From Kiritimatiellia bacterium (GTDB lineage: Bacteria; Verrucomicrobiota; Kiritimatiellia; UBA8416; JABMPJ01), in NCBI GenBank assembly GCA_016783675.1, contig JADHWE010000001.1:64955-128954 (forward strand): a stretch of DNA of 64,000 nucleotides, written 5' to 3'. Positions within the stretch are counted from its first letter, which is position 1; every line of letters begins with the position of its first letter. Of this stretch, positions 34,308 to 55,359 are shown piece after piece. The translations under genes and the position numbers were made by a program. The notes under the pieces are model-generated. The model did not search any database, was not told the origin of the DNA, and saw nothing but the letters and a program-made list of their open reading frames with translations.

Positions 34308-34384
34308 CCACCGGACCCCTACGCCAAGCAGCAACACTCTACTCCTGATCCTGCGTCCCAGTACACAACGCATATCAAGCTCCA

Positions 34385-34423
34385 GAAAAAAGTGGCCCCA
34401 CCGGTTTTGCCGGCAGGGCCACT
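34385..34423 (-). terminator. Rho-independent terminator downstream of the PEP-CTERM gene
   Basis: The minus-sense RNA reads AGUGGCCCugCCGGcaaaaCCGGugGGGCCACU followed by UUUUU(C)U. It has an 8+4 bp GC-rich stem, and the U-tract corresponds to the plus-strand A-run at 34386-34390. Confidence 0.6.
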
Positions 34424-34448
34424 GTCTCTTCCTTAGTCTGTTTGTCGG

Positions 34449-35219: not shown

Positions 35220-35224
35220 TGTCT

Positions 35225-36238: not shown

Positions 36239-36295
36239 AGTGTTTTACCTCGTATTTATCGAATTGTTTTTCATGTCCTATAGTCAGATGTCAGC

Positions 36296-38428: not shown

Positions 38429-38598
38429 AGTTGTAACCTCCAAACAGACTTTTACTATCTGGAACGATTATGGCAGAAAGGGGAGGCGCAGGTCAATGGA
38501 AAAATGGGCGGAATTAGGGAAAATCCCCTAGTGATGCGGCTGACCGGACAAGTAGCTGCAAATCAACGACTAACGCAGTGTAACGACATCATACACCC

Positions 38599-39855: not shown

Positions 39856-39865
39856 GGCCCAGTGG

Positions 39866-40444
39866 TTACTGTTCGCTGCTTTCCTCTTCCTCTACCCGTC
39901 CGGTCGGGATAAGGATCTTTGAGATCACCACGGACCCTTGTACTCGCTCGTCATCGGCACCGGGACCGATCGTCACTTTCCGAACCCGCATCATACCGGG
40001 CTCCTGCCACACCTGGTGCAGGAAGCCGAGAAGCGCGCCCATCGGCGCCTCGAGCTTTCGGATCTCAATCACGTATTCTGTGAAGCCGGCCGACGCGGTC
40101 GGCGTGCGATGCTCCATCGAGACCAGCTCCACGCCGGCCCCCCGTGCCAGGTCATCGATCTCGCCCTTGATGAGGTCAATCGCCTCGGAGTCGGACACGT
40201 CAGATGTCAGAATCGCTTCAATCCGGGCATATTCCGCCTCAATCGGTCCCTTTGAGCGCAACACACCGTGATTGTAGTCCAACTCCTTGGAATCGGTTTC
40301 CGCCTGCGCTTCGATGTCCTGCACACGGTCCGCCACCATGCCGACAACAAGACGGTCCACCAGGAGCACCAGAACGAACACGAGCGCCAGCCCCAGGCCC
40401 CACCGCTCGCGCGGGCCCAACTTATCCAGCTTCAGAAATGCCAT
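39866..40444 (-). CDS. T2SS/T4P inner-membrane platform protein, GspM/PilO-like
   Basis: 192 aa with an N-terminal TM helix, a coiled coil and a ferredoxin-like C-terminal region. It sits directly after the PilM-PilN fusion, with a 2-nt gap. Confidence 0.55.
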   Translation of the reverse strand: MAFLKLDKLGPRERWGLGLALVFVLVLLVDRLVVGMVADRVQDIEAQAETDSKELDYNHGVLRSKGPIEAEYARIEAILTSDVSDSEAIDLIKGEIDDLARGAGVELVSMEHRTPTASAGFTEYVIEIRKLEAPMGALLGFLHQVWQEPGMMRVRKVTIGPGADDERVQGSVVISKILIPTGRVEEEESSEQ

Positions 40445-40446
40445 AG

Positions 40447-41880
40447 TTACTTGCCTGTACCTGTCTCGAACTTACCCATAATCTGGAAGCGGAACCGACC
40501 GTCCCGGTCACGCGTGGTTCCCCCGCTCTCTTTCACATCCGCAAGCAACGGGGATTTCTCCAGGTTATTCACCAGTTCGCGCACTTCGCGACGCGTGGGG
40601 CCTGCCCCACGCAATGTCACCAATTCCTGTGCCATGTCAACGTCGACGGCATCGAAATGCACATCTTCGGGAACAGCCGCATGCACGGCCCCCAGAAGCG
40701 ATACGGCCGAGAAACGTGCATCTTCCCGCGCGCTCACGGTATTGATCACGGCCTGCATCTCGCCCACACGCTGTACGGACGGCTTCGTACGCTCCACCTC
40801 GGCCCGCACCGCACCGGCCTGCGCCCTGCGCACCACATACTTGGATATCCCATAGAACGACCCGCTGAACAGCGCTGCAACCAGCAGGACGCCGAGCAGC
40901 GTCAACGCCTTTGCCCGCGAGATCATCGAACGAACACGCAGTGTGGCCTCGGGGAAAAGCTTGAGCGCAATGGGATCCGCATCACGCGCCACCCCGGCCA
41001 TCGCCGTGATCGCGACGGTCTGCCCCACGGCATCTTCGAGATCCACGCCGGAAGGATCATCCTGCAGCGATTGCCCGAGACTCACGTACTCCACGGGAAC
41101 CTGGAGCGACCCGCCCAAGGCCTCGACCAACGCGTCCGGGACCTTGGCGTATCCGGTCAGCAGCAGGCGGGCCACCTCCAATTCCGGGCTCTCGGCCCGA
41201 CAGATCTCCAGGGCCTGCTGCGTCTCGGATGCGAGATTCTCACACCAACGCGCCTCATCTTCTTCAAGCTGCTCTGCCCCGACAAGGATGCTGCGCGTGT
41301 ACTGGAGTTCACCGTCCTGCGTCACAACCAGGTCGGCGTGACCGGTGTCAATATCCAGCACCGCCTCGGCCTGATCCGCCATCGCCGCCGACCGTCCCGC
41401 CGCCCACTGCGCCAGGCCGTCCGAGCCGATCGTCATCGTCTCAATATCGATGCCCACGGCATCCACCAGGTTAAAACACTCGCGCAGCGGTCCGCGCTGA
41501 ATAACCACCAGCACCACGCGCGTGTACCCGTCGCGCGGCTTCAGGACCCGGTAGTCCGCCACCACCTCGTCACGCGAATAGGGAACCTGCTTGCCAAACT
41601 GGAGGTCCACCATGCCGGCGATTTCAGCCAGGTCCATCGACGGCAGGTCGAACATGCGCACGGTTACCATGTTGCGGGGCAGACAACCGATGACGTGGTG
41701 TGTGTCGAAGCCATGGACCTCGACCGCGTCCGTCAGGGCCTCCTCGAACGAACCCTCGGCGGGGGCCTCGCAGACATGGAATTTTGTGAGGGTTACGCTC
41801 CCGGACCGCACGGCAAACTCGGCCAGCTTGACACGCTCGGTTCCCAGCTCGATGACGGTACGCTTACCTTTAGAACTCAT
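40447..41880 (-). CDS. PilM-PilN fusion (GspL-analogous actin-like ATPase plus bitopic platform protein)
   Basis: The N-terminal ~330 aa resemble PilM (VIELGTERVKLAEF ... DIDTGHADLVV). A TM helix LTLLGVLLVAALFSGSFYGI and a PilN-like periplasmic domain follow. The ATG at 41880 was verified. Confidence 0.7.
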   Translation of the reverse strand: MSSKGKRTVIELGTERVKLAEFAVRSGSVTLTKFHVCEAPAEGSFEEALTDAVEVHGFDTHHVIGCLPRNMVTVRMFDLPSMDLAEIAGMVDLQFGKQVPYSRDEVVADYRVLKPRDGYTRVVLVVIQRGPLRECFNLVDAVGIDIETMTIGSDGLAQWAAGRSAAMADQAEAVLDIDTGHADLVVTQDGELQYTRSILVGAEQLEEDEARWCENLASETQQALEICRAESPELEVARLLLTGYAKVPDALVEALGGSLQVPVEYVSLGQSLQDDPSGVDLEDAVGQTVAITAMAGVARDADPIALKLFPEATLRVRSMISRAKALTLLGVLLVAALFSGSFYGISKYVVRRAQAGAVRAEVERTKPSVQRVGEMQAVINTVSAREDARFSAVSLLGAVHAAVPEDVHFDAVDVDMAQELVTLRGAGPTRREVRELVNNLEKSPLLADVKESGGTTRDRDGRFRFQIMGKFETGTGK

Positions 41881-42847
41881 GCCAGTACTGCCTCTGTCCG
41901 CTCTTATCCACCACAAACTGTATCCGGGCGGCTTCGCCGCCACTCGCCGTATACCCCACCGCAGTCCCGTAGAACGCCGTGGAGCGCACCGCCAGGAATG
42001 CGATGCTCGACAACTCCGACGTCTTGGTCAGCGGCTCGCTCTCGCGCTGCGCGATGATCTCCCCTATGCGCTCCCTCGACGCCGTATAGGCTTCGGCACA
42101 AGAAAGCAGCAGCTCGGCCGACGCCGTATTGGCGTTGATCTTGCCACTGCTGCCGTAAACCGTCACGTAGGGCTCAATCAGAGCGAAAACGCCGTCATCC
42201 ATTCCTTCCACCAACAGCAGTTCGTGGACGGATTCCAACGGAGCTACGCCACCACTATCGGGCTCAACATAACCGCGCGCCGCCCGAATTGTCAATAGAT
42301 GTTGCTGCTTGGTCTCACGGTAGGCCTGAAGGGCCTTGTGCAGCGCGTCCGCCTGTCCCCCTCCCAGTCCCCCAACCCGAATCATGAGCTGCTCGAAGAT
42401 CAGCTCATCTGCCCGGTTCAAGTTGAGACGGCTCTCCGCCCCGACCAGGCCAACGTTGGTTGCCGACCCGTCGGGGGTCTGGTGCACATTGATGATTGAG
42501 AATGTGCCGCCATCGCCCACGACCTGGGCGATGAACACCCCTGGATCAGCATTCCATGCGCCCTCACTCCAGGCATCCCACTGATTCGTATTGCAGGCTA
42601 CCTGCAGTGCCGCGTGCGTCACCCCGGCGCGCGCCAGATGGTACGCGCGCACGTCCTGCTTCATGAATCCGGCCAGCTTCAGACTTGCCGATACATGCGC
42701 CCCCACGGCCAGCGCCAGCGCCGCCAGGAAGAACAACACCCACAGGGCCAGGATCAACACGCTGCCAGATCTCTGGCGGCCATCCGCCGCTTGCCCGCCG
42801 TAGCCTCGGCGAAGGCGGGACTTCCGACTTCCGATCTCCGGCCTCAT
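41870..42847 (-). CDS. gspK: T2SS minor pseudopilin GspK-like
   Basis: The N-terminus RQRSGSVLILALWVLFFLAALALAVG has the GspK-type pseudopilin helix without the conserved Glu5. Size and position after GspJ fit, and there is an ATGA overlap with the upstream gene. Confidence 0.6.
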   Translation of the reverse strand: MRPEIGSRKSRLRRGYGGQAADGRQRSGSVLILALWVLFFLAALALAVGAHVSASLKLAGFMKQDVRAYHLARAGVTHAALQVACNTNQWDAWSEGAWNADPGVFIAQVVGDGGTFSIINVHQTPDGSATNVGLVGAESRLNLNRADELIFEQLMIRVGGLGGGQADALHKALQAYRETKQQHLLTIRAARGYVEPDSGGVAPLESVHELLLVEGMDDGVFALIEPYVTVYGSSGKINANTASAELLLSCAEAYTASRERIGEIIAQRESEPLTKTSELSSIAFLAVRSTAFYGTAVGYTASGGEAARIQFVVDKSGQRQYWHEF

Positions 42848-43476
42848 TCCTGCCCCCCTCCTGCCAACGGAACGAGGAACCATTGGGTCATCGATGTGCC
42901 TCCCACGGAAAGTTCAGCTTCCACCACGGCGGGGAGGTTCGTGGGATTCTCCCAGTCATCAGACCATCCGCTTGCGCTAGTGCTGTCTCCATCCTCCGGT
43001 GCGGCCGCATAGCGCAGCGCGACACTGTCAACGTCCGAGACGAGCACCTCGACGATCTCTGAAGGCTGATGCTCTCCCCAGCCCAACGGCGACACGGCCC
43101 GGCACCAAGCCTGTCGGTTACGGTCCAGGTAGTACCTGACCCGCGCCAGTCGCGGGACGGCTTCAGAGAGACCCCCGGCATCGGGCACGGCGGCTACCCC
43201 TGTGAACTGCAATCCATCGCCCGCGCCCTCAAGCGGCGCGGCCTCGAAGGGCAGGACCCGGCCGATGTCCCGTCGCATGAGTTGAAATCCCACCAGGGCA
43301 TCCGCCTCGTGGCGATTGAACCGACGCGCCACATCCCACACCCGTATGCCACCGGCCAGGCAGGCCCCCACGGCGCCGACCACAACGCCGAGGATGGCGG
43401 TCACGACAAGAAGTTCGATAAGCGTGAATCCGTAACGACCGGGTCTTGAGCTCAAACTTTCACGTCTACCGCTCAC
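42844..43476 (-). CDS. T2SS minor pseudopilin (GspJ-like)
   Basis: It has the prepilin leader and cleavage/methylation motif GRYG|FTLIELLVVTAILGVV, and is 210 aa. Confidence 0.6.
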   Translation of the reverse strand: MSGRRESLSSRPGRYGFTLIELLVVTAILGVVVGAVGACLAGGIRVWDVARRFNRHEADALVGFQLMRRDIGRVLPFEAAPLEGAGDGLQFTGVAAVPDAGGLSEAVPRLARVRYYLDRNRQAWCRAVSPLGWGEHQPSEIVEVLVSDVDSVALRYAAAPEDGDSTSASGWSDDWENPTNLPAVVEAELSVGGTSMTQWFLVPLAGGGQE

Positions 43477-43910
43477 GGGTCACTTCTCTCTTCTTTCTCG
43501 CTCTCAACCTGCACCCAGCTCACGGCCTCAACTTCCCGGCCGGTTACGTCGTGCTGCACCATGACCACGACTTCATGCTTGAGCCATGAGGCGTTCGTGC
43601 AGGCCGCGTCGGAGTCGGAGCGCGTATCAACGCGCCACCAGTAGTCAGGATACCGCGATTGGAGAATGTGATCGTCAATGACGCCGCTGCCGCTGCGTGC
43701 GTCCATCTCGCCCTGCACCACCAACGCATGGCTGAGCGCGGCTGCCCGCATGGTGTCCCGCGACTCGGCCAGGGCGACCATCGAGGTCTGGAATGCCTGC
43801 AGAATCAGGACGATACCCGTGGAGAGAATGACCACGGTCACAAGGAGTTCAATGAGAGTGAAGGCGGAGGCCGATGCTGTCTCCTTCTTCCTCACATCAA
43901 CCTCCACCAT
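43473..43910 (-). CDS. T2SS minor pseudopilin (GspH/GspI-like)
   Basis: It contains ASA|FTLIELLVTVVILSTGIV. The -1 residue is Ala rather than the usual Gly. It is 145 aa, with an ATGA overlap with the next gene. Confidence 0.55.
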   Translation of the reverse strand: MVEVDVRKKETASASAFTLIELLVTVVILSTGIVLILQAFQTSMVALAESRDTMRAAALSHALVVQGEMDARSGSGVIDDHILQSRYPDYWWRVDTRSDSDAACTNASWLKHEVVVMVQHDVTGREVEAVSWVQVESEKEERSDP

Positions 43911-43930: not shown

Positions 43931-44040
43931 CACCTACCCCAGCGGAGGCCAGGGGGTGCCTTTCGCAGGCCTATTATGCGAGCGCAGCGAAGCATACTCC
44001 AGCCAAGAAAGGCACCCCCTGGCCAGAGCGCACCCCCTAC
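43931..44040. repeat. Structured intra-operon repeat, family B, copy 1 (between gspG and the minor pseudopilin genes)
   Basis: It has a perfect 15-bp stem, ccagggggtgccttt (43949-43963) with aaaggcaccccctgg (44008-44022), enclosing a 44-nt loop. The whole unit recurs at 49739-49846. The right end contains the gspG stop codon (44037-44039). Confidence 0.85.
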
Positions 44041-44435
44041 TCTCCCCAGTTGGTGACGTCGTCGTCGGCGCCTTGCTCATCGGGACCGAGCGACCAGAGG
44101 TCGAATCCAAACGTGTTGCGGGCACCGGGATAGCGGTACTGGTACTTGCGCTTCCATGGGTCGTACGGCTTGCTCTCGAGATAGGGCTCTTTCCACGTCT
44201 TGGACGTTGACGGCTGCAACAGAATATCCAAGCCCTGTTCGGTCGAAGGGTAGGTGTCATTGTGCAGCCGGTACATCTTCAGGGCCACACTGATGTTGGC
44301 GATGTCGCCGAGCGCAATCTTGCTCTTGGCATCATCGGAAGCCGGCAGCACGCGCGGGAGCACCATGCCCGCCAGGGCCGCAATAATAATCACCACCACC
44401 ATCAACTCGATCAATGTAAATCCGTCTCGTCTCAT
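44037..44435 (-). CDS. gspG: T2SS major pseudopilin GspG
   Basis: It contains MRRDG|FTLIELMVVVIIIAALAGMVLPRV and the GspG-specific C-terminal pattern DPWKRKYQYRYPG ... DLWSLGPDE. Confidence 0.85.
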   Translation of the reverse strand: MRRDGFTLIELMVVVIIIAALAGMVLPRVLPASDDAKSKIALGDIANISVALKMYRLHNDTYPSTEQGLDILLQPSTSKTWKEPYLESKPYDPWKRKYQYRYPGARNTFGFDLWSLGPDEQGADDDVTNWGE

Positions 44436-44509: not shown

Positions 44510-45715
44510 CTATAATCTGGTGCCAAGCTCAAAGATCGGCAAGAGCATTGCCGCCACAATAAACCCAACAAGCGCTCCCACGACAAGAATCAAGACTGGC
44601 TCAAGCAACGAGATCGCCAGCCGGCACTGTCGTTCGATCTGGCGCTCGTAGAACGCCGCCACTTCGTCGAGCGCCTCGTCCAGACGGCCGCCCTCCTCTC
44701 CGACGGCGCTCATATTGGCCACGAAAACAGGAATATGATGTGCCTGCTTCATCCCCTCGGAGAAAGGAATGCCTTGGCTGACCGTCTGTTGCCGGACACC
44801 GTCAATCTCCTCGCGCAGCACGTGGTTGGATGCGGTTTGGGCGCCGAGCAGCAATACACGGTCAATCGACAGACCTGACTGCAACAGCAGTGCCAGGGTT
44901 CGACTGAAACGCGCGATGTCGGTCAGGAGGATGAACGTCCCGATCAACGGCAGCTTGAGCTTCAGCCCGTCCACGTACAGACGTCCCCGCTCATGGGTCG
45001 CCATGCGGCGGAAGATAGCGGCAACCAGCAACGCCCCAAACACCAACCAATACCAGTTGGCCTGGCAGAAAGCGCTCGTTCCCACGAGTATCCGTGTGGG
45101 CAAGGGCAGCGACTCGTATTCATCGAAGAGACTGAGCACGCGCGGGAGGAAGAAAGTCAGCAGAATAAATACAGTCAATAGCCCCACCGACAGCGTCAAC
45201 AAAGGATATGCCACGGCAGACTGGACACTACGACGGGTCTCTTCTTCCTTGTCCATGGCCTCTGCAAGCCGTGTCAACACCGTGTCGAGGACGCCACCGG
45301 ACTCCCCTGAACGCACCATGCTGACGTAGAGTTCGGGAAAATGGGCTCCGTGACGCTGCAGGGCCTCGCTCAACATCTGGCCGTCGCGAATGCTGCCCTC
45401 AATGTCTCCAACCAGCCGCTTGAAGCGGGCATGCTCGGTTTGGGCTCGAATGGTGGAAAGCGCCCGCAGAATGGGCACGCCCGAACGCGTCAGGCTGGCA
45501 AGCTGGTAGGTAAAAACGACCACGTCCCGCTGCTTAATCCGACGGGCCCACCGCTTCTGCTTCTCTGCACCGCCGCCCTGTTTCTCTTCTATATATATAG
45601 GAACAAGGCCACGGGAGCTGAGCACGTCGGCGGCCTCCGCACGTGAGAAAGCATCAATCACCCCCTCCTCGGTGCGGTGCGGTCCCTGTTTCGCTTTGTA
45701 GGTGAATAGCGGCAT
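44510..45715 (-). CDS. gspF: T2SS inner-membrane platform protein GspF
   Basis: 401 aa, with two T2SSF repeats and three TM segments. It sits between gspE and gspG. Confidence 0.85.
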   Translation of the reverse strand: MPLFTYKAKQGPHRTEEGVIDAFSRAEAADVLSSRGLVPIYIEEKQGGGAEKQKRWARRIKQRDVVVFTYQLASLTRSGVPILRALSTIRAQTEHARFKRLVGDIEGSIRDGQMLSEALQRHGAHFPELYVSMVRSGESGGVLDTVLTRLAEAMDKEEETRRSVQSAVAYPLLTLSVGLLTVFILLTFFLPRVLSLFDEYESLPLPTRILVGTSAFCQANWYWLVFGALLVAAIFRRMATHERGRLYVDGLKLKLPLIGTFILLTDIARFSRTLALLLQSGLSIDRVLLLGAQTASNHVLREEIDGVRQQTVSQGIPFSEGMKQAHHIPVFVANMSAVGEEGGRLDEALDEVAAFYERQIERQCRLAISLLEPVLILVVGALVGFIVAAMLLPIFELGTRL

Positions 45716-45731: not shown

Positions 45732-47366
45732 CTATATCGATGTAACTCTCAGCACTTCTTCGAGGGTCGTCACGCCTTGCGCTACCTTGGCCATACCGTC
45801 GTCAGCCAGTGTCGGCATGTTCAGTGCGTCGGCGGCTACCCGGATCTGGGCGGCCGAGGCCCGATCAAGGATCAGCGTCTGGATCTCCGGCAGGAGCGGA
45901 ATGAACTCCGCGATCGCCACGCGCCCGCGATACCCATGGCCGTTGCACTCTTTGCAGCCGGCTCCCCGGTAGAGCGTCTTGCCGTCAGCCTCGTACGATT
46001 CCTTGCAGGAGCGGCAGATCACCCGCACAAGGCGCTGGGCTATGAATGCGTGCACGGTCGATGTAATCAGGTAGGGATCCACCCCCATGTCGCCCAACCG
46101 AACGGCACCCCCCGCCGCGTCGTTCGTATGCAGCGTGCTGAGCACGAGATGCCCGGTCATGGCTGTCTGGATCGCAATCTCGGCGGTTTCGCGATCACGC
46201 ACCTCGCCCACCATCATCACGTCCGGATCATGTCGCAACATGCTCGGCAACGCCCGCGAGAAGGTCAGGCCGATCTTTGGATTCATCTGCGTCTGCGTGA
46301 TACCGTGCAGCTCATACTCAACCGGATCTTCCAGCGTGATGATTTTGCGCGTCCGCACATTGAGGCGGCTCAGACAGGCGTAAAGCGTTGTGCTTTTCCC
46401 GCTGCCGGTCGGCCCCGTCACAAAGATGATCCCGTGTGGACGCGCCACGTAGGACTCGAGCAGTTCACGATGCCGATCGGAGAATCCGAGATCCCCCAGG
46501 TCAAACAGCATGGTAGAAGGGAGAATACGGATCACGACATCCTCGCCGTGCACCGACGGCACTACGGAGACGCGCAAGTCGTACTCGCTGCGCCCGATCT
46601 TGACCCGCGAACGGCCGTCCTGCGGCAGACGCCGCTCGACAATGTCCAGGTGCGACATCAGCTTCACGCGACTGATGATGGCCGGATACAAGTGCCGGAT
46701 GTTTCGCGGCACACTCATATCATAGAGAATGCCATCGATGCGGCGCCGGATGGAAACGCCGTCGCGATGGGCCTCGAAATGGATGTCGGTGGCCCGGTCG
46801 TCAATCGCATCGCGAAGGACTTGGTTGACCAATCGCACCACCGATGCATCTTCGGCCTGGCGCTCGAGGTCATGCGACTCCTCCGGACGCCGCATCGTCT
46901 CACGCTCCGGACTCTCCGCCAGAATACGCTCAACGGTCTCCGCGCCCACACCATAGTAGCGGTGCAGCGCGTCCAGGATATCAGACCGGCAGGCCAGCAC
47001 ACGTTCCACGTGACAGCCCAGGTTGGTTTCGATGTCTTCGACGGCCGACATATCGAGCGGATCGGAAACGGCCACGGTCAGACTGCGGCCGTCATAGCGG
47101 ATCGGCATCACCTTGTAATGGGAGACGAGTTTGGCCGAGACGGCACGGACCGCGCCGGGCTCGACGGACTCATCGGCCAGCCGCACGAAACGCATGCGTT
47201 TCTGTTCAGCCACAACCGGCAACAGGTCCTGCTCGCCGATGAAGTCCCCGCCAACCAGTGCGGCAACGAGTGACTCCCTGTTGGCTCTTGCACGCTCGCG
47301 AGCGCTGGAGAGCTGCTTCGCCGTCAGCAGGCCCTTCTTTACCAGGACATCTTCAAAACCGGCCAT
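45732..47366 (-). CDS. gspE: T2SS/T4P assembly ATPase GspE
   Basis: It has an N-terminal MshEN/T2SSE_N domain, Walker A GPTGSGKST, Asp/His boxes and the tetracysteine motif CRSC...CKEC. A GGGGAG Shine-Dalgarno sits 6 nt before the ATG. Confidence 0.9.
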   Translation of the reverse strand: MAGFEDVLVKKGLLTAKQLSSARERARANRESLVAALVGGDFIGEQDLLPVVAEQKRMRFVRLADESVEPGAVRAVSAKLVSHYKVMPIRYDGRSLTVAVSDPLDMSAVEDIETNLGCHVERVLACRSDILDALHRYYGVGAETVERILAESPERETMRRPEESHDLERQAEDASVVRLVNQVLRDAIDDRATDIHFEAHRDGVSIRRRIDGILYDMSVPRNIRHLYPAIISRVKLMSHLDIVERRLPQDGRSRVKIGRSEYDLRVSVVPSVHGEDVVIRILPSTMLFDLGDLGFSDRHRELLESYVARPHGIIFVTGPTGSGKSTTLYACLSRLNVRTRKIITLEDPVEYELHGITQTQMNPKIGLTFSRALPSMLRHDPDVMMVGEVRDRETAEIAIQTAMTGHLVLSTLHTNDAAGGAVRLGDMGVDPYLITSTVHAFIAQRLVRVICRSCKESYEADGKTLYRGAGCKECNGHGYRGRVAIAEFIPLLPEIQTLILDRASAAQIRVAADALNMPTLADDGMAKVAQGVTTLEEVLRVTSI

Positions 47367-47382: not shown

Positions 47383-48795
<1,413 letters not shown>

Positions 48796-49716
48796 TTAAG
48801 CCGCCGAGCGGCGCCGTTTCGTCTTCCCACGCGACGCAAAACTCTCGCGCATGCCCTTGTCAATCAGCTCATGCGCGGCCTTGAAACACTTGTGCTCCAG
48901 CTTGGCACGATCTTTTTCCAGTGTCTGCCCGCTTCCCTCCAAGTGCATCGCGCGCGCCGAGAACTCCGCCAACTTGCTGTCCTCAAACACCTCGAAGAGC
49001 TTGGAGGTGACCCACACGCCGGAGAGATACTCCAGCATGTCTGAAAGGGTTGACTCCACGATGATCTTGCGTGCATCCGCCATGAACCCCTTGTGGCCCA
49101 GATGCTGAGTCACTTCACTCTCGGCCTCTTCGTCGAACAGCTCCGCACAGGGCAGCAGGTTGATCGTCTCGATGGTTTGCGCACTGAACGAAAGTGGCCG
49201 CGGATAGACGATGATCACCTTCCCCATGCGCTGGGCCAGCACCTCCTTGACAATGTGATCCTTCACCGCCAGGGCCTGCTCGTAAATCGTTTCCTGGTTG
49301 ATCCCGCCGAATCCGGTGAACTCCACTTCGTTGTCTTCGAATGTCCCGCAGCCCTTGTCGCCGACCACAACGTAAGCCGTCCGGTCGCTTCCATGCCGGT
49401 CCGCCTCGGCCTGTGCCCGGCGGATCACGCCCTGGTTCAACCCCCCCATGAATCCGGAGTCGGACGTAATCACCACGATACCCAGCACATCGGTCATCAC
49501 GCGTACGAGCGGATCGTCTACATCCACCAGGCGGACCACCCGAAAGAACTCAGAAAAAGCGTCCATGAAACGGTCGAACCGCTCCTTCTCTTTTTCCATG
49601 ACATGATACTGCGCCGCGGCAATATTCTTGAGCGTCTCGATGAGCTGCACGAGCTCCGTATTGAACTGGAGCTCCTTTCTAAGTTCGCTCAACTGCATCG
49701 CTAATTCCCTGGGCAC
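48796..49716 (-). CDS. atpG: F1-ATPase gamma-type subunit (divergent)
   Basis: The N-terminal helix LSELRKELQFNTELVQLIETLKNIAAAQ, the ITSDSGFMGGLN motif and a C-terminal helix fit gamma. The start is either GTG at 49716 or ATG at 49698. Confidence 0.7.
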   Translation of the reverse strand: MPRELAMQLSELRKELQFNTELVQLIETLKNIAAAQYHVMEKEKERFDRFMDAFSEFFRVVRLVDVDDPLVRVMTDVLGIVVITSDSGFMGGLNQGVIRRAQAEADRHGSDRTAYVVVGDKGCGTFEDNEVEFTGFGGINQETIYEQALAVKDHIVKEVLAQRMGKVIIVYPRPLSFSAQTIETINLLPCAELFDEEAESEVTQHLGHKGFMADARKIIVESTLSDMLEYLSGVWVTSKLFEVFEDSKLAEFSARAMHLEGSGQTLEKDRAKLEHKCFKAAHELIDKGMRESFASRGKTKRRRSAA

Positions 49717-49738: not shown

Positions 49739-49846
49739 CACCTACCCTCAGCGGAGGACTGGGGGAGCCTCCCGCAGGCCTACCATGCGAGCGAAGCGAA
49801 GCATACTCCAGCCAAGGGGGCTCCCCCAGACCGGAGCGCGCCGCTA
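49739..49846. repeat. Structured intra-operon repeat, family B, copy 2 (between the b/delta and gamma genes)
   Basis: Its flanks and ~44-nt loop are near-identical to copy 1. The stem ctgggggagcc(tcc) (49759-49772) pairs with (gg g)ggctcccccag (49816-49829). The right end contains the b/delta stop codon (49844-49846). Confidence 0.85.
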
Positions 49847-50590
49847 CCCGCGGGCGTGCTTCTTAACCTCTTCGACCGCCTCTTTCATCCGGTTGCTGAG
49901 GCTGCCGTCGATCTCCAGGCTGCCCAGTTTGAAAGCCAGTCCAGCCACAAGATCCTCCTGGATGTCCTCCTGCACCTTGATGTCGGCCTCGAATTTCTCT
50001 TTGAGGATCGCCTCGAGCCGCGCTTTCTGCTCAGGCGCTATGGGACGCGCCGCCGTGAAGGCCACATCGTTGGTATCCACCGTGATACTCGTTGAATCCA
50101 GGGCATCGAGCGCATCCAGCAACTCACCGGTAAACACCTGGTCAACGGCCTCGGCCATCTTCTCCGTGAAGACCAGGTCGAAGATCTCTCCGGAGTAGAG
50201 TACCGCCTTCTCCTCCATGTCCTGGGAGATCTGCTGGCGGAACTTCTCCTCGTTGCGCTTGGCCTGCTCGATCAGCCGATCGGCTTCTGCCTTGGCTTCG
50301 CCCAGAACCTGATCACGGGCACGCGCGACCTCCTTGTCGGCTTGGGTTCGGTGCTCGTCGAGTTCCTTCTCAGCCGCGATCTTCTGCTGCTGGAACACCC
50401 GTTCGTGTTCCTCGATCTGCTCCCGAATCCCTGCCTCCTTCTTCCGGATCTCGGCCTCCACCTCACGCACGCTCTCAACCGCCTTACTCGTGTCGCCAAG
50501 CAGGATGCGTTTGATCAACACGATAACGACCACCAACACCACCACGTGCGTCAGGACAATCGGCAACAGCAACTTCCACATATCAGACAT
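49844..50590 (-). CDS. atpF: Fo subunit b fused to a delta/OSCP C-terminal-domain-like segment
   Basis: It has an N-terminal TM helix (LLLPIVLTHVVVLVVVIVLI) and a long charged coiled coil. The C-terminal ~90 aa (AFTAARPIAPEQKARLEAILKEKF...EDLVAGLAFKLGSLEIDGSLSNRMKEA) resemble the end of delta (...LIGG..I..G...IDGSV...L). Confidence 0.65.
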   Translation of the reverse strand: MSDMWKLLLPIVLTHVVVLVVVIVLIKRILLGDTSKAVESVREVEAEIRKKEAGIREQIEEHERVFQQQKIAAEKELDEHRTQADKEVARARDQVLGEAKAEADRLIEQAKRNEEKFRQQISQDMEEKAVLYSGEIFDLVFTEKMAEAVDQVFTGELLDALDALDSTSITVDTNDVAFTAARPIAPEQKARLEAILKEKFEADIKVQEDIQEDLVAGLAFKLGSLEIDGSLSNRMKEAVEEVKKHARG

Positions 50591-50653: not shown

Positions 50654-50869
50654 TTAGCCCCTACCAAACAGCTGGAACAACACGAGCAAAGCCACCACCG
50701 CAATGGCTTCCGCGAAAACAAGCGAGATGATCATGGCCTGCAGGATCTTCGGCGCCGCCGACGGGTTCCGCCCGAGGGCCCGAATACTCGCGTATCCGAT
50801 CGCCGCGATCACGCCCGAGGGACCGATAATGGTCACGAACATCACCAGAAAGATAATAAAATTCTGCAT
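50654..50869 (-). CDS. atpE: Fo subunit c
   Basis: It is a 71-aa helical hairpin with a polar loop RALGRNPSAAP and the ion-binding carboxylate E53 in LVFAEAIAVVAL. Confidence 0.8.
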   Translation of the reverse strand: MQNFIIFLVMFVTIIGPSGVIAAIGYASIRALGRNPSAAPKILQAMIISLVFAEAIAVVALLVLFQLFGRG

Positions 50870-50875: not shown

Positions 50876-51109
50876 CTACTCTTCCACTAAAACCATGCAC
50901 TCATCGCGGTCAAATGTCACCATGCCCCGCTTGATCGCTATGGTCTCGCGACCGCCATCCACAACCACTTCGCCGGCCCGCAACAGGCTCACAATCGGCG
51001 CATGGTGTTCGAGCAACTCAAATTCCGCCGAATCTCCGGTCAGACAAATACTCTTCGCCTCTCCCTCAAATATCACATGCTTAGGATTCAGGACCACCAA
51101 CTTCATCAT
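50876..51109 (-). CDS. atpC: F1 epsilon-type subunit, N-terminal beta-sandwich only
   Basis: The 77-aa sequence MKLVVLNPKHVIFEGEAKSICLTGDSAEFELLEHHAPIVSLLRAGEVVV...VLVEE matches the epsilon N-domain pattern. The C-terminal helical hairpin is absent. Confidence 0.65.
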   Translation of the reverse strand: MMKLVVLNPKHVIFEGEAKSICLTGDSAEFELLEHHAPIVSLLRAGEVVVDGGRETIAIKRGMVTFDRDECMVLVEE

Positions 51110-51122: not shown

Positions 51123-52622
51123 CTACTTCTCCGCCTCGGGGGCGTTCGCCTGTTGATCCATATGCTCGGTCAGCGCAGTCGACAACATCTGCTCCAATTC
51201 CGGCGTCAGTTCGGTCGCATCCCCGACCAAGTCGTACAACGCACCATGGCGCTCGCGCACAAACAGGGGGAACTCCCTGCAGAACTTATGGCGATGAGGG
51301 TCGGTCATCTTGTTGAGCACACCCTCGCGCAACCCGAAGAGCAACAGGATCTGGTCGTTGACCGGCACCGGTTGGTACTGCATCTGCACAAAGATCGACG
51401 CGATCGACTGGCCGCGATCGACGATCTTCTGCGCCTCATCCGACAGGCCGGACTGCAGGCGGCTGAGGGCCAGCACTTCGTTGTACTGCGCGAAGTCGGC
51501 CCGCAGCCCCAACGTCAGCTCCCGCATCAATGGGCTCTGTACGCGCCCGCCGATAATCGACAGCGAGGTCGTGATATCGATGGCCGGGCGGACACCCTCG
51601 GCGAAGATAGCCGAACTCAAAAAGATCTGTCCGTCGCACATCGAGGCCAGGTTCGAAGGAATGAAGCCGGTCAGGTCGCCCTGCAGCGTCTCAGCAATAC
51701 CGAGGAACGTCATCGATGCCCCGCCATGCGCCTCATTAAACCGGCCGGCACGTTCCATCAACTGTGTCTGCACATAGAAAATATCACCGGGATAGGCCTC
51801 GCGTCCCGGCGGACGCTCCAGCAGAAGCGAGAGCTGCCGATAGGCCCAGGCATGCTTGGTCAGATCGTCGAACACCACCAGCACGTCCTTGCCCTTGAGC
51901 GCAAAATACTCGCCCATTGAGGCCGCTGCAAACGGCACGAGGTACTGCTCACCGACCGGCGCGTTATCCGTGGCCACCATCACGCACGTGTAATCGAGTG
52001 CGCCGCCATCCTTGAGCACCGACATGATCTTGCTCAGACCTGAAAGCGATTTTCCCACACAGCAGAAGATGCATACGATGTCACGCCCGAGCTGATTGAG
52101 GATGGCATCCACCGCAATAACCGTCTTGCCGGTCATGCGGTCACCCAGGATCAACTGTCGCTGCCCCTTGGCCAGCGGAATCGCAATGTCGATCATCTTC
52201 GTGCCGACGGGAATGAACTCTTCGACAGGCGCCCGCCAGACAATCGGGGCCGAGTCGCGGAAAACCGCATACATATCGTCCGGCACCACGGACTCCCCCT
52301 GGTCACAGGGCTCGCCCAACGCCGTCACCATGCGCCCGATGAAGCGGTCGCCCACAGGAATCTTGAACGGCTCACTGGCACCCGTGACTTCCTTACCCAT
52401 GCGCAGGCGCGTCTGATCGCCCAGGACGAGGACCAGCACGTCCTCCTCATCAAACCCCATGATGATACCGTTCACCCCGTTGCCGAGGTCCACGATCTGA
52501 CCGTTGAGACAGGTAGGCAGACCCGTGATGCGGACAATGATCTCCTTGATGTCCTTGATCACGCCCTTCTCGTGGACCTTGATCTTAAAGAGCGGTAGCG
52601 CGGTACCGAGCGATTTGCTCAT
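51123..52622 (-). CDS. atpA: F1-ATPase alpha-type subunit, paralogue 2 (arginine-finger position is Ile)
   Basis: It has the alpha-type P-loop GDRMTGKT and DDLTKHAWAYRQLSLLLERPPGREAYPGDIFY. The canonical SVSRVG is SLSIIG (I356, codon 51555-51557). It overlaps the preceding alpha gene by 38 nt. Confidence 0.85.
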   Translation of the reverse strand: MSKSLGTALPLFKIKVHEKGVIKDIKEIIVRITGLPTCLNGQIVDLGNGVNGIIMGFDEEDVLVLVLGDQTRLRMGKEVTGASEPFKIPVGDRFIGRMVTALGEPCDQGESVVPDDMYAVFRDSAPIVWRAPVEEFIPVGTKMIDIAIPLAKGQRQLILGDRMTGKTVIAVDAILNQLGRDIVCIFCCVGKSLSGLSKIMSVLKDGGALDYTCVMVATDNAPVGEQYLVPFAAASMGEYFALKGKDVLVVFDDLTKHAWAYRQLSLLLERPPGREAYPGDIFYVQTQLMERAGRFNEAHGGASMTFLGIAETLQGDLTGFIPSNLASMCDGQIFLSSAIFAEGVRPAIDITTSLSIIGGRVQSPLMRELTLGLRADFAQYNEVLALSRLQSGLSDEAQKIVDRGQSIASIFVQMQYQPVPVNDQILLLFGLREGVLNKMTDPHRHKFCREFPLFVRERHGALYDLVGDATELTPELEQMLSTALTEHMDQQANAPEAEK

Positions 52623-54048
52623 CGAACCCCTCCTTGATGCTGTCGGACATTTCCTGGTTCTGCCTCAGTTCAACCAGTAGCTCCGGGCAGTTGAGGTGAA
52701 CCAGGTCGACCAAGCTCTTCAGCTTGGCCTGAACTTCCTCCGGCGTGGTGTCCTCCAGGAACCCCTGCTCGAGCGCATAGAGCACGACGACCTCGTCCTC
52801 CATCGGAATCGGGTTGTTCTGATCCTGCTTGAGGACCTCCTCCAACACCTTGCCCTGCAGCAAACGTTTCTCCACATCGGGAGACATGCCGGCCTTGATA
52901 CGCGTCAGTTTCTCCAGCTCCTTGTAGCGCACAAACTCGAGTTGGAGCATGCCGCACAGTTTCTTCACGGCGCGCCACTGCACCTTGCTGCCGATACGGG
53001 AAACCGACAACCCCATGTCGATCGCGGGTTTAAAACCCTCGCCAAACAGGTTGGTGCTGAAGTAGATCTGCCCATCGGTCATCGAAACAATGTTGGAAGG
53101 AATATACCCCGCCAGATCGCCCTGCAGGGTCTCGACGATAGGCAGGTGCGTCATCGACCCCCCGCCACGATCCGGCTTCAACTTGCCGGCGCGCTCCACA
53201 AGCTGTGAGTGGATATAGAAGATGTCACCGGGATAGGCATCGCGTCCGGGCGCGCGCTCCAGCAGGAGCGAGATCTGCCGATAGGCCCAGGCATGCTTTG
53301 TGAAATCGTCAAACACCACCAGCACATGCTCAGCCTTCTCGTACATGAAATACTCGCCGAGGCTGGTTGCCACGTAGGGCGACAGGTATTGCTGTCCCAT
53401 GGGATCGGAAGCCGTTGCCGCCACACTGATGGTGTAGTCCCACGCATGTGCCTGGTTAAACACTTCATGCACACGGCCGAGCGCTGCTTCGGATTTCCCG
53501 ATGCAGCAATAGATACAGATCACGCCTTTGCCGCGCTGGTTCAGGATCGCATCCACCCCGACGGTTGTCTTGCCGGTCATGCGGTCGCCGATGATCAGCA
53601 TGCGCTGCCCCCGCCCCACCGGCTTCATCATATCGACAATCTTGGTACCGGTCTCCATGACATCGCCGAGCGGAATACGCTCCAGTACAGAAGGCGCCTT
53701 CATGAAGATGGGATACATGGCCGATTCACGTATCGGCCCCTCGCCATCAATCGGCTGTGCCAGGGCATTCACGCGCCGGCCGAGGAACTCTTCGCCCACC
53801 GGAACCTTGAAATCGTCAATTGGGGTGGAAACCACGTCGCCCGGCTTGATGGGATGACCCGCCTTGACAACCAGGACCAGAACGTAATCGGCATCAAAAC
53901 CAACGATAACGCCCTCGGAGTCGCTTCCGATCCGGACCAACTGCCCATTCATACAGTTGGTCAACCCGGTTGCATGGACCACGTCCTGCCGCACTTCGGC
54001 GACGGTGCCTTTCTCCGTCATCTTGATCAGGTCGAGTTTGAGAGCCAT
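52585..54048 (-). CDS. atpA: F1-ATPase alpha-type subunit, paralogue 1
   Basis: It has the alpha-type P-loop GDRMTGKT and DDFTKHAWAYRQISLLLERAPGRDAYPGDIFY. SVSRIG retains the finger Arg (R351). The conserved GIRPA motif reads GFKPA (K340, codon 53029-53031). Confidence 0.85.
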   Translation of the reverse strand: MALKLDLIKMTEKGTVAEVRQDVVHATGLTNCMNGQLVRIGSDSEGVIVGFDADYVLVLVVKAGHPIKPGDVVSTPIDDFKVPVGEEFLGRRVNALAQPIDGEGPIRESAMYPIFMKAPSVLERIPLGDVMETGTKIVDMMKPVGRGQRMLIIGDRMTGKTTVGVDAILNQRGKGVICIYCCIGKSEAALGRVHEVFNQAHAWDYTISVAATASDPMGQQYLSPYVATSLGEYFMYEKAEHVLVVFDDFTKHAWAYRQISLLLERAPGRDAYPGDIFYIHSQLVERAGKLKPDRGGGSMTHLPIVETLQGDLAGYIPSNIVSMTDGQIYFSTNLFGEGFKPAIDMGLSVSRIGSKVQWRAVKKLCGMLQLEFVRYKELEKLTRIKAGMSPDVEKRLLQGKVLEEVLKQDQNNPIPMEDEVVVLYALEQGFLEDTTPEEVQAKLKSLVDLVHLNCPELLVELRQNQEMSDSIKEGFDEQIARYRATAL

Positions 54049-55359
54049 CTACTTTCCCTTCCCTCCGAACCAGCGCAGGAAGAACAGCAGGCTCATGATC
54101 GCGAGAAAGCCCAGGATGATGTAGATGATCAGCCAGGTCGTCTTCATACTGGGTGGCTTCGCCTTGAAGCCATATTTGGTGTTCTTGGTCTGGGGCCGCA
54201 GCGCGCTTTCCACACGCAAAATCCGTTGCTCGATTCGATCCAACTGGTCGTTCTGGCGACGATAGAAGGCTACGTAGCGGTCGGAAAATGTTGTGGGTCC
54301 CTTCTCGGCTTCAACCGCATCGAGTTCTTCCAAGAGTTCCTGGATGCCCGCTTCCACCGCCTTGAACGACCCATCGACACCTACCCGTTTCAGCAGCGCC
54401 TCGGCTCGACTGCGCAGGTCAGGGATGCGCAAGCCGGAGAGGTTCCACTTGTCGCGCATCTTGACCTCAAACACGCGTGTCTCGCCCGGCGGTATTTCCA
54501 CGCTGTTCTTGAAGACGTAGCAGATCTCCGTCTCCGGATGGGTCGATACATCCAACTCGCCCGCATCCAGAACGTCCGACAGCTTGATTTCCTCAGGCAG
54601 ATTCTTCTCGATTGGGACGCGGCGCGTCTCCTTCGGCGACGTATTCCTCACCGAGATCTTGAGGACAGCCACGTCGTATTCGCCTTCCAACACCACGTCC
54701 GAGCCATCAGGCAGCGGGGCCTCCTTCACATCCCCCATCAGGTTGCCGATGTCTTTTCCTGTGCTGAGCACGAGGTTTTCCATGTAACCGAGGTCGGTCT
54801 TGATGCGCTTCAGGGTTTCCAAGTTGGCCTCGTAGGCGCGGATGTGCTGCATGGGCTTGATGCTCGGGCCAATGCCGCTTTCGCCCTGCAGGGCTGTGAC
54901 AGAGCCCAGGTTCTTCTCGATCTCGGCCAATAGCCCCGCCGCGTTCTCGTGGAAATCGGATCCTTCCAGTTTCGCGACGAGCTGCTTGGCGTGCTCCCGG
55001 AGCAACGTGATCTCGTCCACGTCGACCATCCAGATATCGCGGATCTGGACGTCAAATTCGCGAATTTCCTTGGCGCCAAGCTCCATCTCGCCGAACACGT
55101 AATAGCGATCGCTCTTGATGTCGTAACCTAGCTCCAACCCAACGGGAGTGGTTACGTCGTTCGTACCAACGCGAGCGGGCAGATTGGCCTTGATTTGCAC
55201 GGTCTGAACCGTGTTGATCGGGTTGGCGGCCCGGATGCGCAAAACCACTTTGTCCGCATGCGCGGTCCCCGCCAGAAGCGCGGCCAGCAGCAGCGTAGAG
55301 AAACAGAGACGGCCCGGCAAAGGGCCGCCGCCCGAATGATGAAATATTATCCTGCCCAT
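54049..55359 (-). CDS. Signal-peptide protein with two internally duplicated (beta-rich plus helical) modules and a C-terminal TM anchor; function unknown
   Basis: It has the signal sequence LCFSTLLLAALLAGTAHA. Repeat 1 is aa 37-110 (55030-55251) and repeat 2 is aa 229-305 (54445-54675). They share vL-I...N...v-I-x-NLP...DV...YVF...E-R-F-V-x-RD-W. The C-terminal TM is WLIIYIILGFLAIMSLLFFL. The stop codon abuts the alpha-1 ATG with a 0-nt gap. Confidence 0.6.
   Translation of the reverse strand: MGRIIFHHSGGGPLPGRLCFSTLLLAALLAGTAHADKVVLRIRAANPINTVQTVQIKANLPARVGTNDVTTPVGLELGYDIKSDRYYVFGEMELGAKEIREFDVQIRDIWMVDVDEITLLREHAKQLVAKLEGSDFHENAAGLLAEIEKNLGSVTALQGESGIGPSIKPMQHIRAYEANLETLKRIKTDLGYMENLVLSTGKDIGNLMGDVKEAPLPDGSDVVLEGEYDVAVLKISVRNTSPKETRRVPIEKNLPEEIKLSDVLDAGELDVSTHPETEICYVFKNSVEIPPGETRVFEVKMRDKWNLSGLRIPDLRSRAEALLKRVGVDGSFKAVEAGIQELLEELDAVEAEKGPTTFSDRYVAFYRRQNDQLDRIEQRILRVESALRPQTKNTKYGFKAKPPSMKTTWLIIYIILGFLAIMSLLFFLRWFGGKGK

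Follow-up and report, generated by a model that had tools for sequence, protein, structure and literature searches.

A tandem pair of F1 alpha paralogues, the second without the arginine finger, in an F-type ATPase gene cluster adjoining type II secretion genes of Kiritimatiellia

The window analysed here is a stretch of 64,000 nucleotides (nt) of contig JADHWE010000001.1 (positions 64,955 to 128,954) from a Kiritimatiellia bacterium (assembly GCA_016783675.1). On its minus strand lies a cluster of F-type ATPase genes in which two adjacent genes, termed alpha-1 and alpha-2, both encode homologues of the F1 alpha subunit. Alpha-1 has the arginine finger, the transition-state Arg known as alpha-Arg373 in the bovine and alpha-Arg376 in the E. 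coli enzyme, and alpha-2 has Ile at this position. The genes run in the order u436, alpha-1, alpha-2, epsilon, c, b/delta, gamma, beta, GspE, GspF and GspG, all on the minus strand, so that the ATPase genes are directly followed by genes of a type II secretion system (T2SS).

The alpha paralogues and the finger position

The two alpha genes and the codons discussed below are as follows.

52585..54048, minus strand: alpha-1 (487 residues), finger-bearing; P-loop GDRMTGKT at 53566-53589, K340 at 53029-53031, finger R351 at 52996-52998
51123..52622, minus strand: alpha-2 (499 residues), finger-less; P-loop at 52122-52145, C329 (Thr to Cys in the VISIT-DG motif) at 51636-51638
51588-51590, 51555-51557 and 51543-51545, minus strand: alpha-2 codons of R345, of I356 (finger position) and of R360

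Translation of the two minus-strand open reading frames (ORFs) gives GFKPAIDMGLSVSRIG as the finger segment of alpha-1 and GVRPAIDITTSLSIIGGR as that of alpha-2. Both strings and all codon positions reproduce exactly those of the initial annotation, which had described in alpha-1 a Lys (K340) in place of the first conserved Arg and a retained second Arg (R351), and in alpha-2 a retained first Arg (R345) with Ile (I356) at the S-V-S-R position and an Arg (R360) four residues later. In HMMER alignments against solved F1 alpha chains, the finger segment is ungapped for both paralogues. S-L-S-I356 of alpha-2 is aligned over S-V-S-R of F1 alphas, with 'rpaidittslsiiggrvq' standing over 'rpainvglsvsrvggaaq' of a solved alpha, and R360 falls on the first Ala of GGAAQ, four residues past the finger.

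Apart from the finger, alpha-2 has the makings of an intact alpha subunit. Both paralogues match Pfam PF02874, PF00006 and PF00306, and hence have the three-domain alpha fold. Alpha-1 matches Pfam ATP-synt_ab at 8.5e-69 and alpha chains in the PDB down to 1e-138; identity of alpha-2 to solved alphas is about 36-40%. At the cutoff of 484.45 of the NCBIfam atpA model (TIGR00962), alpha-1 passes with a score of 520.9 and alpha-2, with 456.0, falls below. The AlphaFold2 model of alpha-2 is confident (predicted local distance difference test score, pLDDT, 87.6; predicted template modelling score 0.88), and superposes in Foldseek on F1 alphas with a template modelling (TM) score of about 0.9 and a root-mean-square deviation of 2-3 Å over about 475 columns. 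I356 directly follows a short strand in this model, and R360 starts a one-turn helix. The P-loop GDRMTGKT and the Walker B motif of alpha-2 are unaltered. Moreover, both paralogues have GDRMTGKT together with [IV]GKS in place of IGQK, so that no carboxylate is present, as expected of a non-catalytic site; IGKS in both alphas also puts a cis Lys at the alpha-Gln208 position. The delta-binding N-terminus of about 20 residues, which contacts the oligomycin sensitivity-conferring protein (OSCP), is missing from both, alignments beginning at query residues 8-13 against residues 21-31 of solved alphas. The two genes overlap by 38 nt in the window and by about 35 nt in relatives, which indicates coupled expression. 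Two features that define AtpA, the finger and a score above the curated cutoff, are thus missing from alpha-2.

The Ile at the finger position is fixed, well beyond what chance would give. A whole-protein similarity search over 5.8 billion proteins gave 119 homologues of alpha-2 at 60-92% identity, all from metagenome-assembled genomes (MAGs) of Kiritimatiellia, Lentisphaerae or Verrucomicrobiota. The finger position is Ile in 119/119, R345 is kept in 119/119, and position 360 is Arg in 94 and Lys in 25. The claim of the initial annotation that alpha-2 lacks the arginine finger is therefore upheld by the ungapped alignment, by the F1 alpha fold and by these homologues. Among 120 members of the alpha-1 family, the finger Arg is present in every one, the K340 position is Lys in 115 and Arg in 5, and the position four residues past the finger (finger+4) is Lys in 77 and Arg in 43. 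A scan of metagenome contigs that was seeded on the c subunit, and hence independent of the alpha motif, recovered 28 finger-less and 33 finger-bearing alpha ORFs; all 28 second alphas have Ile, and the finger-bearing copy precedes the finger-less one in each of the 20 loci where both are complete. In 58 species-level loci, from a scan partly selected on the motif, Ile at the finger and Arg or Lys at 360 occur in 58/58. For comparison, among 64 canonical alpha representatives from a 50%-identity library, the finger Arg is found in 60; the other four entries are truncated or carry frameshifts.

Selection on alpha-2 is strong. Ratios of nonsynonymous to synonymous substitution rates (dN/dS) against close relatives are 0.05-0.08 for alpha-2, 0.03-0.06 for alpha-1 and 0.02 for beta, values which are approximate with dS near saturation. 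Column identities of 0.88-0.89 for residues 271-330 and 0.75 for residues 331-360 place the surroundings of the finger among the best conserved stretches of alpha-2, and mean pairwise identity is 0.60 for alpha-2 versus 0.67 for alpha-1. In a comparison of family consensus sequences, the derived changes of alpha-2 cluster at catalytic-interface motifs: R373I, V371L, Thr to Cys in VISIT-DG, TALPiieT to TFLGIAET and PIGRGQR to PLAKGQR. The Cys of VISIT-DG is present in 96% of main-lineage alpha-2 proteins, and Thr in 64/64 canonical alphas. Since the changed segments are as well conserved in alpha-2 as in alpha-1, these changes point to new constraint, not to relaxation. In the N-terminal crown domains each paralogue is well conserved (0.70-0.79), and consensus identity between the two is only 0.25-0.43. 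Alpha-2 is thus a complete alpha subject to selection, in which a non-basic residue has become fixed at the finger.

The first-Arg position of alpha-1 has a different meaning. By alignment it corresponds to bovine alpha-Arg362, and the 64 canonical alphas have Arg in 45, Lys in 9, Leu in 5 and other residues in 5. K340 is therefore a conservative change at a variable position, within normal canonical variation. Of the reciprocal loss of conserved arginines proposed in the initial annotation, the loss of the finger from alpha-2 stands; K340 is real in the sequence and is not the loss of a conserved residue. The reciprocal framing fails for a further reason, which is that a sister lineage with a second gene order has Lys (GFKPA) in both copies, and the finger is missing only from its downstream copy.

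Similarly, the basic residue at finger+4 is not peculiar to alpha-2. Lys or Arg stands there beside an intact finger in alpha-1 (120/120), in the upstream copy of the second gene-order lineage (alpha-1'), in the single-alpha clusters described below (two 'Omnitrophota' MAGs and locus L125) and in 7/64 canonical alphas. Because finger-bearing alphas share it, this residue predates the loss of the finger and is not a compensation specific to alpha-2. R360 as a finger relocated in alpha-2 alone is ruled out by the same distribution, and the suspicion that R360 itself might occupy the finger position appears unfounded on alignment and evolutionary grounds.

Neighbour-joining trees, rooted on beta with 100 bootstraps, place the alphas of these clusters in one clade apart from canonical alphas (98/100 and 91/100). 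Alpha-2 is monophyletic (100) with a longer branch, and the single alpha of 'Omnitrophota' groups with alpha-1 (74). The second gene order, u436, epsilon, c, b/delta, alpha-1', alpha-2', gamma, beta and GspE, is found at loci L116, L119, L139, L144 and L147, and partially at L100 and L146. Here alpha-2' reads SVSIIGS[KR], with Lys at the first-Arg position and the Thr of VISIT-DG kept. Alpha-1' and alpha-2' group together in 73/100 bootstraps, and alpha-2 and alpha-2' in only 22/100; on the other hand, shared derived sites favour alpha-2 with alpha-2' over the lineage grouping by 15 versus 8, and include R373I, A382I and M383L. The grouping of alpha-1' with alpha-2' could reflect gene conversion or a finger loss that happened a second time by convergence, and the data would fit either one old duplication with partial homogenisation or a finger lost twice to the same residue. 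Across the main and second gene-order lineages, Arg to Ile is the sole universal hallmark of the second alpha. A single finger-bearing alpha with the same link to GspE/F/G occurs at L060 and L062 ('Omnitrophota' MAGs) and L125. Locus L148 has no alpha-2, and its alpha-1 and GspE are frameshifted; it may be decaying or stem from an error-prone assembly. Loci L063-L074 (Bacilli/Mollicutes and the Candidate Phyla Radiation) were considered as relatives and set aside as irrelevant, since their alphas are ordinary and merely share FAEGxRPAID.

The consequences of a missing finger depend on beta, whose catalytic site is completed by it.

47383..48768, minus strand: beta (461 residues), catalytically complete; P-loop GGAGCGKT at 48256-48279, catalytic E196 at 48181-48183
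47707-47709 and 47578-47598, minus strand: beta N354 (position of bovine beta-Arg356) and DELSKND

Beta passes the NCBIfam atpD cutoff (553.8 versus 462.85). Its P-loop, GERIREG and the Arg of DNxxRF (here DNVYRF) are all kept, so that equivalents of beta-Arg182 and beta-Arg246 are present and the subunit is catalytically competent. The catalytic Glu and the DELSKND reading of the DELSEED loop, both reported in the initial annotation, are found at E196 and 47578-47598; family-wide this loop reads DELS[KR]xDR. The beta residue that matches the alpha finger is also changed, from STSR to S[SC]SN, and this Asn is family-wide and includes single-alpha clusters. In E. coli, F1-ATPase activity falls from 42 umol/min/mg in wild type to 0.12 with alpha-R376K and 0.025 with alpha-R376Q (PMC3268026, Table 1), which bears out the earlier statement that substitution of the finger severely impairs catalysis, and both mutations impair ATP synthesis as well (PMC3268026). 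Judging from these rates, a beta site completed by alpha-2 should be very slow. With beta complete and alpha-2 finger-less, interfaces completed by alpha-1 and by alpha-2 would not be equivalent, as the initial annotation had also supposed; the finger is fixed as Ile and the catalytic residues of beta are complete.

The accompanying F-type genes and the type II secretion operon

The other genes of the ATPase cluster are as follows.

54049..55359, minus strand: u436 (436 residues), first gene of the cluster, with a signal peptide; the gene caller places the start at about 55320
50876..51109, minus strand: epsilon (77 residues), beta-sandwich only, without the C-terminal helical domain; Pfam ATP-synt_DE_N at residues 2-76
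50654..50869, minus strand: c subunit (71 residues), Pfam ATP-synt_C 9.8e-06; loop RNPSAA, carboxylate E54 at 50708-50710
49844..50590, minus strand: b/delta fusion (248 residues), with an N-terminal transmembrane helix and a b-like coiled coil; of delta, the C-terminal domain alone is present
48796..49716, minus strand: gamma (300-306 residues), highly divergent; Pfam ATP-synt 4.4e-28, best PDB match 4e-11

Gamma, epsilon, c and b/delta are all far under their NCBIfam equivalog cutoffs, and alpha-1 and beta are above theirs. Gamma scores 82 against a cutoff of 194, and epsilon covers positions 1-79 of the 130-position NCBIfam epsilon model, below cutoff. The b/delta fusion matches Pfam ATP-synt_B and positions 105-167 of the 172 of Pfam OSCP, with the N-terminal domain of delta missing. 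Its best NCBIfam model is the N-ATPase b subunit TIGR03321, full-length at an E value of 4.8e-14, with 52.7 against a cutoff of 224.7, and its PDB matches are the C-termini of delta and of mycobacterial b-delta.

The u436 protein consists of two repeats of a beta-sandwich plus three-helix bundle and then a highly conserved C-terminal transmembrane helix (pLDDT 89.8 in the AlphaFold2 model). This helix is better conserved than the rest, with W396, I399, F405 and R416 invariant and W417 near-invariant (numbering of a 423-residue form). The family has 152 members, confined to the same clades and every one annotated as hypothetical; u436 lies upstream of alpha-1 in 47 genome loci, with a gap of 0 nt in the window. 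It matched no Pfam or NCBIfam model and no fold in the PDB (best E value 3e-3, TM score 0.11). A role of u436 as a substitute for subunit a or as a known T2SS part was considered and rejected, there being no family or fold match, and the invariant Arg lies at the cytoplasmic end of the transmembrane helix, not mid-membrane like a-Arg210.

A gene for subunit a was sought in several ways. No PF00119 match was found among called genes up to 10 kb either side of the cluster on the window contig or in the rest of the window, and transmembrane profiles gave no polytopic candidate inside the cluster. In about 60 related genome loci with up to 10 kb of flank, no match appeared and the a subunits of Bacilli control loci were recovered, in a search that used phmmer with an approximate E. 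coli AtpB sequence and then a profile including the control a subunits, and so had limited sensitivity for a divergent a. At the loci examined, subunit a is thus not encoded with c and b.

Of all proteins in the set, c is the most strongly conserved, with 80-100% identity within the Planctomycetes-Verrucomicrobia-Chlamydiae (PVC) group and an invariant RNPSAA loop. Its helix-2 carboxylate is Glu54 in the window and in 54/60 genomes; four genomes have Met and two have Gln, with no other membrane carboxylate, and among 69 metagenome loci there is one more Met. These loci (Met in L011, L021, L026, L028 and L122; Gln in L010 and L054) have an otherwise almost identical c. We know of no ion-translocating c ring that can do without this carboxylate. 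It is thus not invariant across the family and appears dispensable in some species. The cluster departs from a chemiosmotic F1Fo in two respects, namely the encoding of a with c and b, and an invariant c carboxylate.

Downstream of beta, the same strand carries genes of a T2SS.

45732..47366, minus strand: GspE/PilB-type ATPase with MshEN N-domain, 16 nt past the beta stop codon; NCBIfam GspE 1.5e-165, PilB 6e-162
44510..45715, minus strand: GspF/PilC-type platform protein, Pfam T2SSF; position conserved
44037..44435, minus strand: GspG major pseudopilin, Pfam T2SSG and N_methyl; position conserved
32919..43900, minus strand: co-directional continuation with two minor pseudopilins, a GspK-like protein, a PilM-PilN fusion (GspL-like), a bitopic protein of 192 residues, a membrane protein with MORN repeats and four secreted proteins, of which one has the PEP-CTERM match given below

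These neighbours comprise GspE, GspF, GspG, minor pseudopilins including GspK, and GspL/M-like (PilM/N) proteins, and hence qualify as a T2SS. The genes called in the cluster and over the 13 kb downstream of it, the stretch to which the search for GspD was confined, include no secretin family. Intergenic gaps from u436 to GspG in the window are 0, -38, 13, 6, 63, 127, 27, 16, 16 and 74 nt. A terminator-like hairpin lies past GspG at 44031-44012; the total of the promoter and terminator scan is not above chance, and the hairpin gives weak support only.

The arrangement is not restricted to the window. Window proteins were searched by tblastn against 58 species-level genome loci and 32 longer metagenome loci, and nearly all of them carry the same cluster. 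The genome loci are MAGs or single-amplified genomes (SAGs) of Kiritimatiellia, Lentisphaerae/Victivallales, Verrucomicrobiota or 'PVC' plus two 'Omnitrophota', none of them cultured. In 67 of the 68 loci that extend far enough, GspE comes directly after beta, with a median gap of about 37 nt, and this adjacency spans two gene orders, the 'Omnitrophota' MAGs and GspE identities down to 44-47%. The ATPase genes thus appear to be operonic with GspE/F/G. The sole locus without GspE there is L024, where pntA/pntB, encoding a proton-translocating transhydrogenase, follow beta (7196-10380). The initial annotation had implied an ordinary ATP synthase with a spare alpha; the paralogue holds, and what it overlooked are the lack of a nearby subunit a, the losses of the c carboxylate and the T2SS operon.

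Several other observations were made around the cluster. At the end of the T2SS-like operon, a secreted protein (window 34449-35219) has a weak PEP-CTERM match (E value 0.0034, under the Pfam cutoff), and a 1345-residue exosortase (EpsH)-TPR protein is encoded at 11324-15361, about 20 kb from the PEP-CTERM gene, and a sulfatase gene is also found nearby; sulfatase genes are typical of Kiritimatiellia. In two more distant relatives (L003, 1-6924; L004, 1-6951), a giant Laminin_G_3 protein of 3300-3400 residues or more is encoded directly upstream of u436, where it takes the place of the DUF7544/GYF and 591-residue genes of the window; this protein may be cargo or a surface component of the system. 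GspG coordinates differ between the window and European Nucleotide Archive contig NODE_181 (L075) by a shift of 6 nt relative to a 337-residue gene, indicating a small indel between the two assemblies.

Assembly of the head and rival explanations

Alpha-2 is most likely a functional, selectively maintained F1 alpha paralogue that has kept its own P-loop and fold and whose beta-facing side has been converted. Our preferred reading, to which we give a probability of about 0.5, is that alpha-1 and alpha-2 belong to one alpha3beta3-type head of an ATP-driven device, not a synthase, in which the slow site acts as a brake or index. According to this model, alpha-1, alpha-2 and beta would co-assemble around gamma. 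Beta sites completed by alpha-1 would be fully catalytic, and the one or two completed by alpha-2 would bind nucleotide and turn over hundreds of times slower, giving a naturally asymmetric, hybrid F1. Such a head would sit in a specialised F-type ATPase made of alpha-1, alpha-2, beta, gamma, a short epsilon, a c-ring and a b/delta stator. Since no gene for a lies nearby and the genes are apparently co-transcribed with GspE/F/G, the machine probably hydrolyses ATP and is not a chemiosmotic synthase. The slow alpha-2 site could then be a built-in brake or indexing dwell, standing in for the lost C-terminal domain of epsilon and the lost acidic DELSEED loop. The gene set may therefore encode a motor put to a new use and not a usual ATP synthase. 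More tentatively, and with less than even confidence, we suggest an undescribed envelope machine, in which an F1Fo-derived rotary ATPase without ion channel, in some species even without the c-ring carboxylate, and with an asymmetric head would form, together with the periplasmic, membrane-anchored u436, the mechanical or energising part of a T2SS or type IV filament apparatus.

Several points weigh against this picture. The existence of single-alpha clusters (L060, L062 and L125) means that the machine can work without alpha-2. With three alpha sites in a ring, the two paralogues cannot be present at 1:1, the ratio suggested by translational coupling. The conserved Lys or Arg at finger+4 could make up in part for the missing Arg. 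About 90-95% of genomes keep Glu as the c carboxylate, and a subunit a encoded elsewhere in the genome could leave the enzyme ion-coupled in most species. Every sequence comes from MAGs, SAGs or metagenomes.

Other arrangements of the same subunits can be considered. Two homotypic heads, with (alpha-1)3beta3 as active motor and (alpha-2)3beta3 as a near-dead scaffold, nucleotide sensor, hibernating form or second static ring, would fit 1:1 gene dosage and translational coupling better than a 2:1 mixed head; self-sorting would also be favoured by crown domains that are conserved within and divergent between paralogues (0.70-0.79 versus 0.25-0.43), and single-alpha clusters occur. However, with one beta, gamma, epsilon, c and b/delta only, both heads would compete for partners, and an all-alpha-2 head would be without a competent site, yet the remaining catalytic-interface motifs of alpha-2 are tightly constrained. 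We therefore regard separate heads as unlikely. A rearranged ring of (alpha-2, alpha-1, beta) x 2 would have two catalytic sites and a 1:1:1 stoichiometry that matches gene dosage, with the alpha-1 finger completing each beta site, the Ile face of alpha-2 packing on the nucleotide-site face of alpha-1, and the Asn354 face of beta packing on alpha-2. It is attractive in that K340 of alpha-1 (site face) and I356 of alpha-2 (finger face) would meet at one new interface; K340 is presumably in the adenine pocket on the site face, by homology to bovine alpha-Arg362. The finger equivalent of beta itself is also lost (STSR to S[SC]SN), and a homodimeric b/delta fusion would have two equivalent binding sites. 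Nevertheless, single-alpha clusters, which could not form a ring of this kind, share the beta Asn and the K340-type Lys, and alpha-2' of the sister lineage also has Lys. The idea is purely inferential, and we know of no F-, V- or A-type ATPase that breaks strict alpha/beta alternation. Its prospects are accordingly poor, the poorest among the arrangements that keep alpha-2 functional.

Other explanations concern alpha-2 itself or the enzyme as a whole. Functional asymmetry would be absent if R360, or the family-wide Lys replacing alpha-Gln208 in IGKS, took the role of the finger. Position 360 is always basic in alpha-2 (Arg 94, Lys 25; 58/58 loci), and in the model R360 opens a short helix just four residues past the finger, within conceivable reach. 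But a basic residue at finger+4 is ancestral and coexists with an intact finger (alpha-1 120/120, single-alpha clusters, 7/64 canonical alphas), the alignment is ungapped, the fold is unchanged, and even the conservative alpha-R376K costs about 350-fold in E. coli (PMC3268026), which makes such a replacement improbable, a little more so than separate heads. The alternative that we take most seriously, while still considering it unlikely, is a housekeeping, ion-coupled F1Fo synthase with atpB elsewhere in the genome, inherited synteny as the source of the T2SS adjacency, and alpha-2 as a lineage-specific regulatory add-on. It would accommodate alpha-1 and beta above their NCBIfam equivalog cutoffs, Glu54 of c kept in about 90-95% of genomes, the pntAB genes that replace GspE after beta at L024, and the split atp operons of other bacteria (PMC4154653). 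It is at odds with c and b without a at every locus, given that the three genes usually occur as a group (PMC4154653), with the Met or Gln carboxylate replacements in 6/60 genomes with otherwise nearly identical c, with beta-GspE adjacency in 67/68 loci across two gene orders and GspE identities down to 44-47%, and with gamma, epsilon, c and b/delta far under equivalog cutoffs. Finally, alpha-2 might be a decaying duplicate whose substitutions are unconstrained noise, a case that the initial annotation had kept in mind. It does evolve somewhat faster than alpha-1 (0.60 versus 0.67) and falls under the atpA cutoff. This explanation is refuted by the invariant Ile (119/119; 28/28) and dN/dS of 0.05-0.08, and with an intact P-loop, a confident fold and an intact ORF at every locus we give it virtually no credence.

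Relation to known systems and significance

With canonical F1Fo AtpA (TIGR00962) the system shares the three-domain fold, GDRxTGKT, most VISIT-DG and PGREAYPGD motifs, and beta, gamma, epsilon, c and b-delta genes alongside. It differs in having two tandem paralogues, the second with an Ile finger and a score below the cutoff, and no a nearby. A 2014 survey of atp loci reported in-locus duplications of b and atpI and none of alpha (PMC4154653). Our full-text literature search, which most subscription journals fall outside, turned up no earlier account of alpha paralogues in tandem, of an alpha without the finger or of atp genes clustered with a T2SS.

The residue lost from alpha-2 is the same as that altered in the engineered E. 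coli alpha-R376K and alpha-R376Q enzymes, in which nucleotide is still bound, the transition state is stabilised poorly and turnover falls by 10^2-10^3 (PMC3268026). Unlike in engineered or hybrid F1 mutants, the defect here is natural, long fixed and borne by a dedicated paralogue, so that only some interfaces are affected. Hybrid F1 of thermophilic Bacillus has been made with one to three defective sites, and in single-molecule work the enzyme with a single slow site reportedly goes on rotating and pauses there for long. To our knowledge, asymmetric F1 has so far been made by mutagenesis alone.

Among divergent relatives, the N-ATPase resembles the cluster as a probably accessory divergent F-type set whose b is the best match of the b/delta fusion and which has no separate delta gene. 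It has, unlike the cluster, subunit a, AtpQ/AtpR and a single alpha, in the order beta-epsilon-Q-R-a-c-b-alpha-gamma, and scores against its models (alpha 462 with a cutoff of 750, beta 491 with 752, b 52.7 with 224.7) place the cluster outside that family. The F1-like X0 ATPases of Mycoplasma (types 2 and 3, including the gliding G1-ATPase of M. mobile) are a precedent for an F1 module recruited away from chemiosmosis, and dimeric F1-like assemblies exist in Mycoplasma mobile. NCBIfam models of these F1-like proteins match at 1e-110 to 1e-126, and the G1-ATPase beta of the PDB at 7e-100; with MMOB1660/1670 and MSC_0618/0619 scores of 369-375 against a cutoff of 600, 421 against 850, 270-285 against 520 and 390 against 570, the cluster is not a member of these families either. 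The Mycoplasma ATPases belong to another phylum and have other partner genes, and c and b/delta are present in the cluster; the Mycoplasma clusters, as far as we know, have no c and b/delta homologues and one alpha-like gene.

By analogy, the cluster also resembles FliH-FliI-FliJ of type III secretion (the T3SS), a secretion apparatus in which a ring ATPase related to F1 is joined by a gamma-like stalk and by a stator that is like a fusion of b and delta. Homology of FliH, FliI and FliJ to F1 parts is established. In contrast to the cluster, FliI is a homohexamer with a finger in every subunit and the T3SS complex is without a c-ring; and the partner of the cluster, unlike the T3SS, is a type II (GspE/F/G/K, PilMN) system that already comes with a hexameric ATPase.

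In the textbook picture of rotary F-ATPases, three equivalent catalytic sites fire one after another. If an enzyme in nature has a finger-less alpha of its own, it would show what evolution makes of a site that binds nucleotide and barely hydrolyses it, be it a brake, an index or a sensor, and it would supply a ready-made hybrid F1 for single-molecule work. In addition, annotations of 'F0F1 ATP synthase subunit alpha' in MAGs, and metabolic reconstructions of Kiritimatiellia and Lentisphaerae derived from them, may mistakenly assign a chemiosmotic ATP synthase to these organisms. The retention of c-ring, stator and F1 head with no a nearby, and at times with no c carboxylate, in an operon with GspE/F/G may make the recruitment of rotary ATPases to secretion or filament machines testable, which is otherwise inferred only from the distant homology of FliH/I/J with F1. 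If the envelope machine proposed above is real, it would represent a second independent recruitment of an F-type ATPase to secretion, like FliH/I/J and with the c-ring and stator kept.

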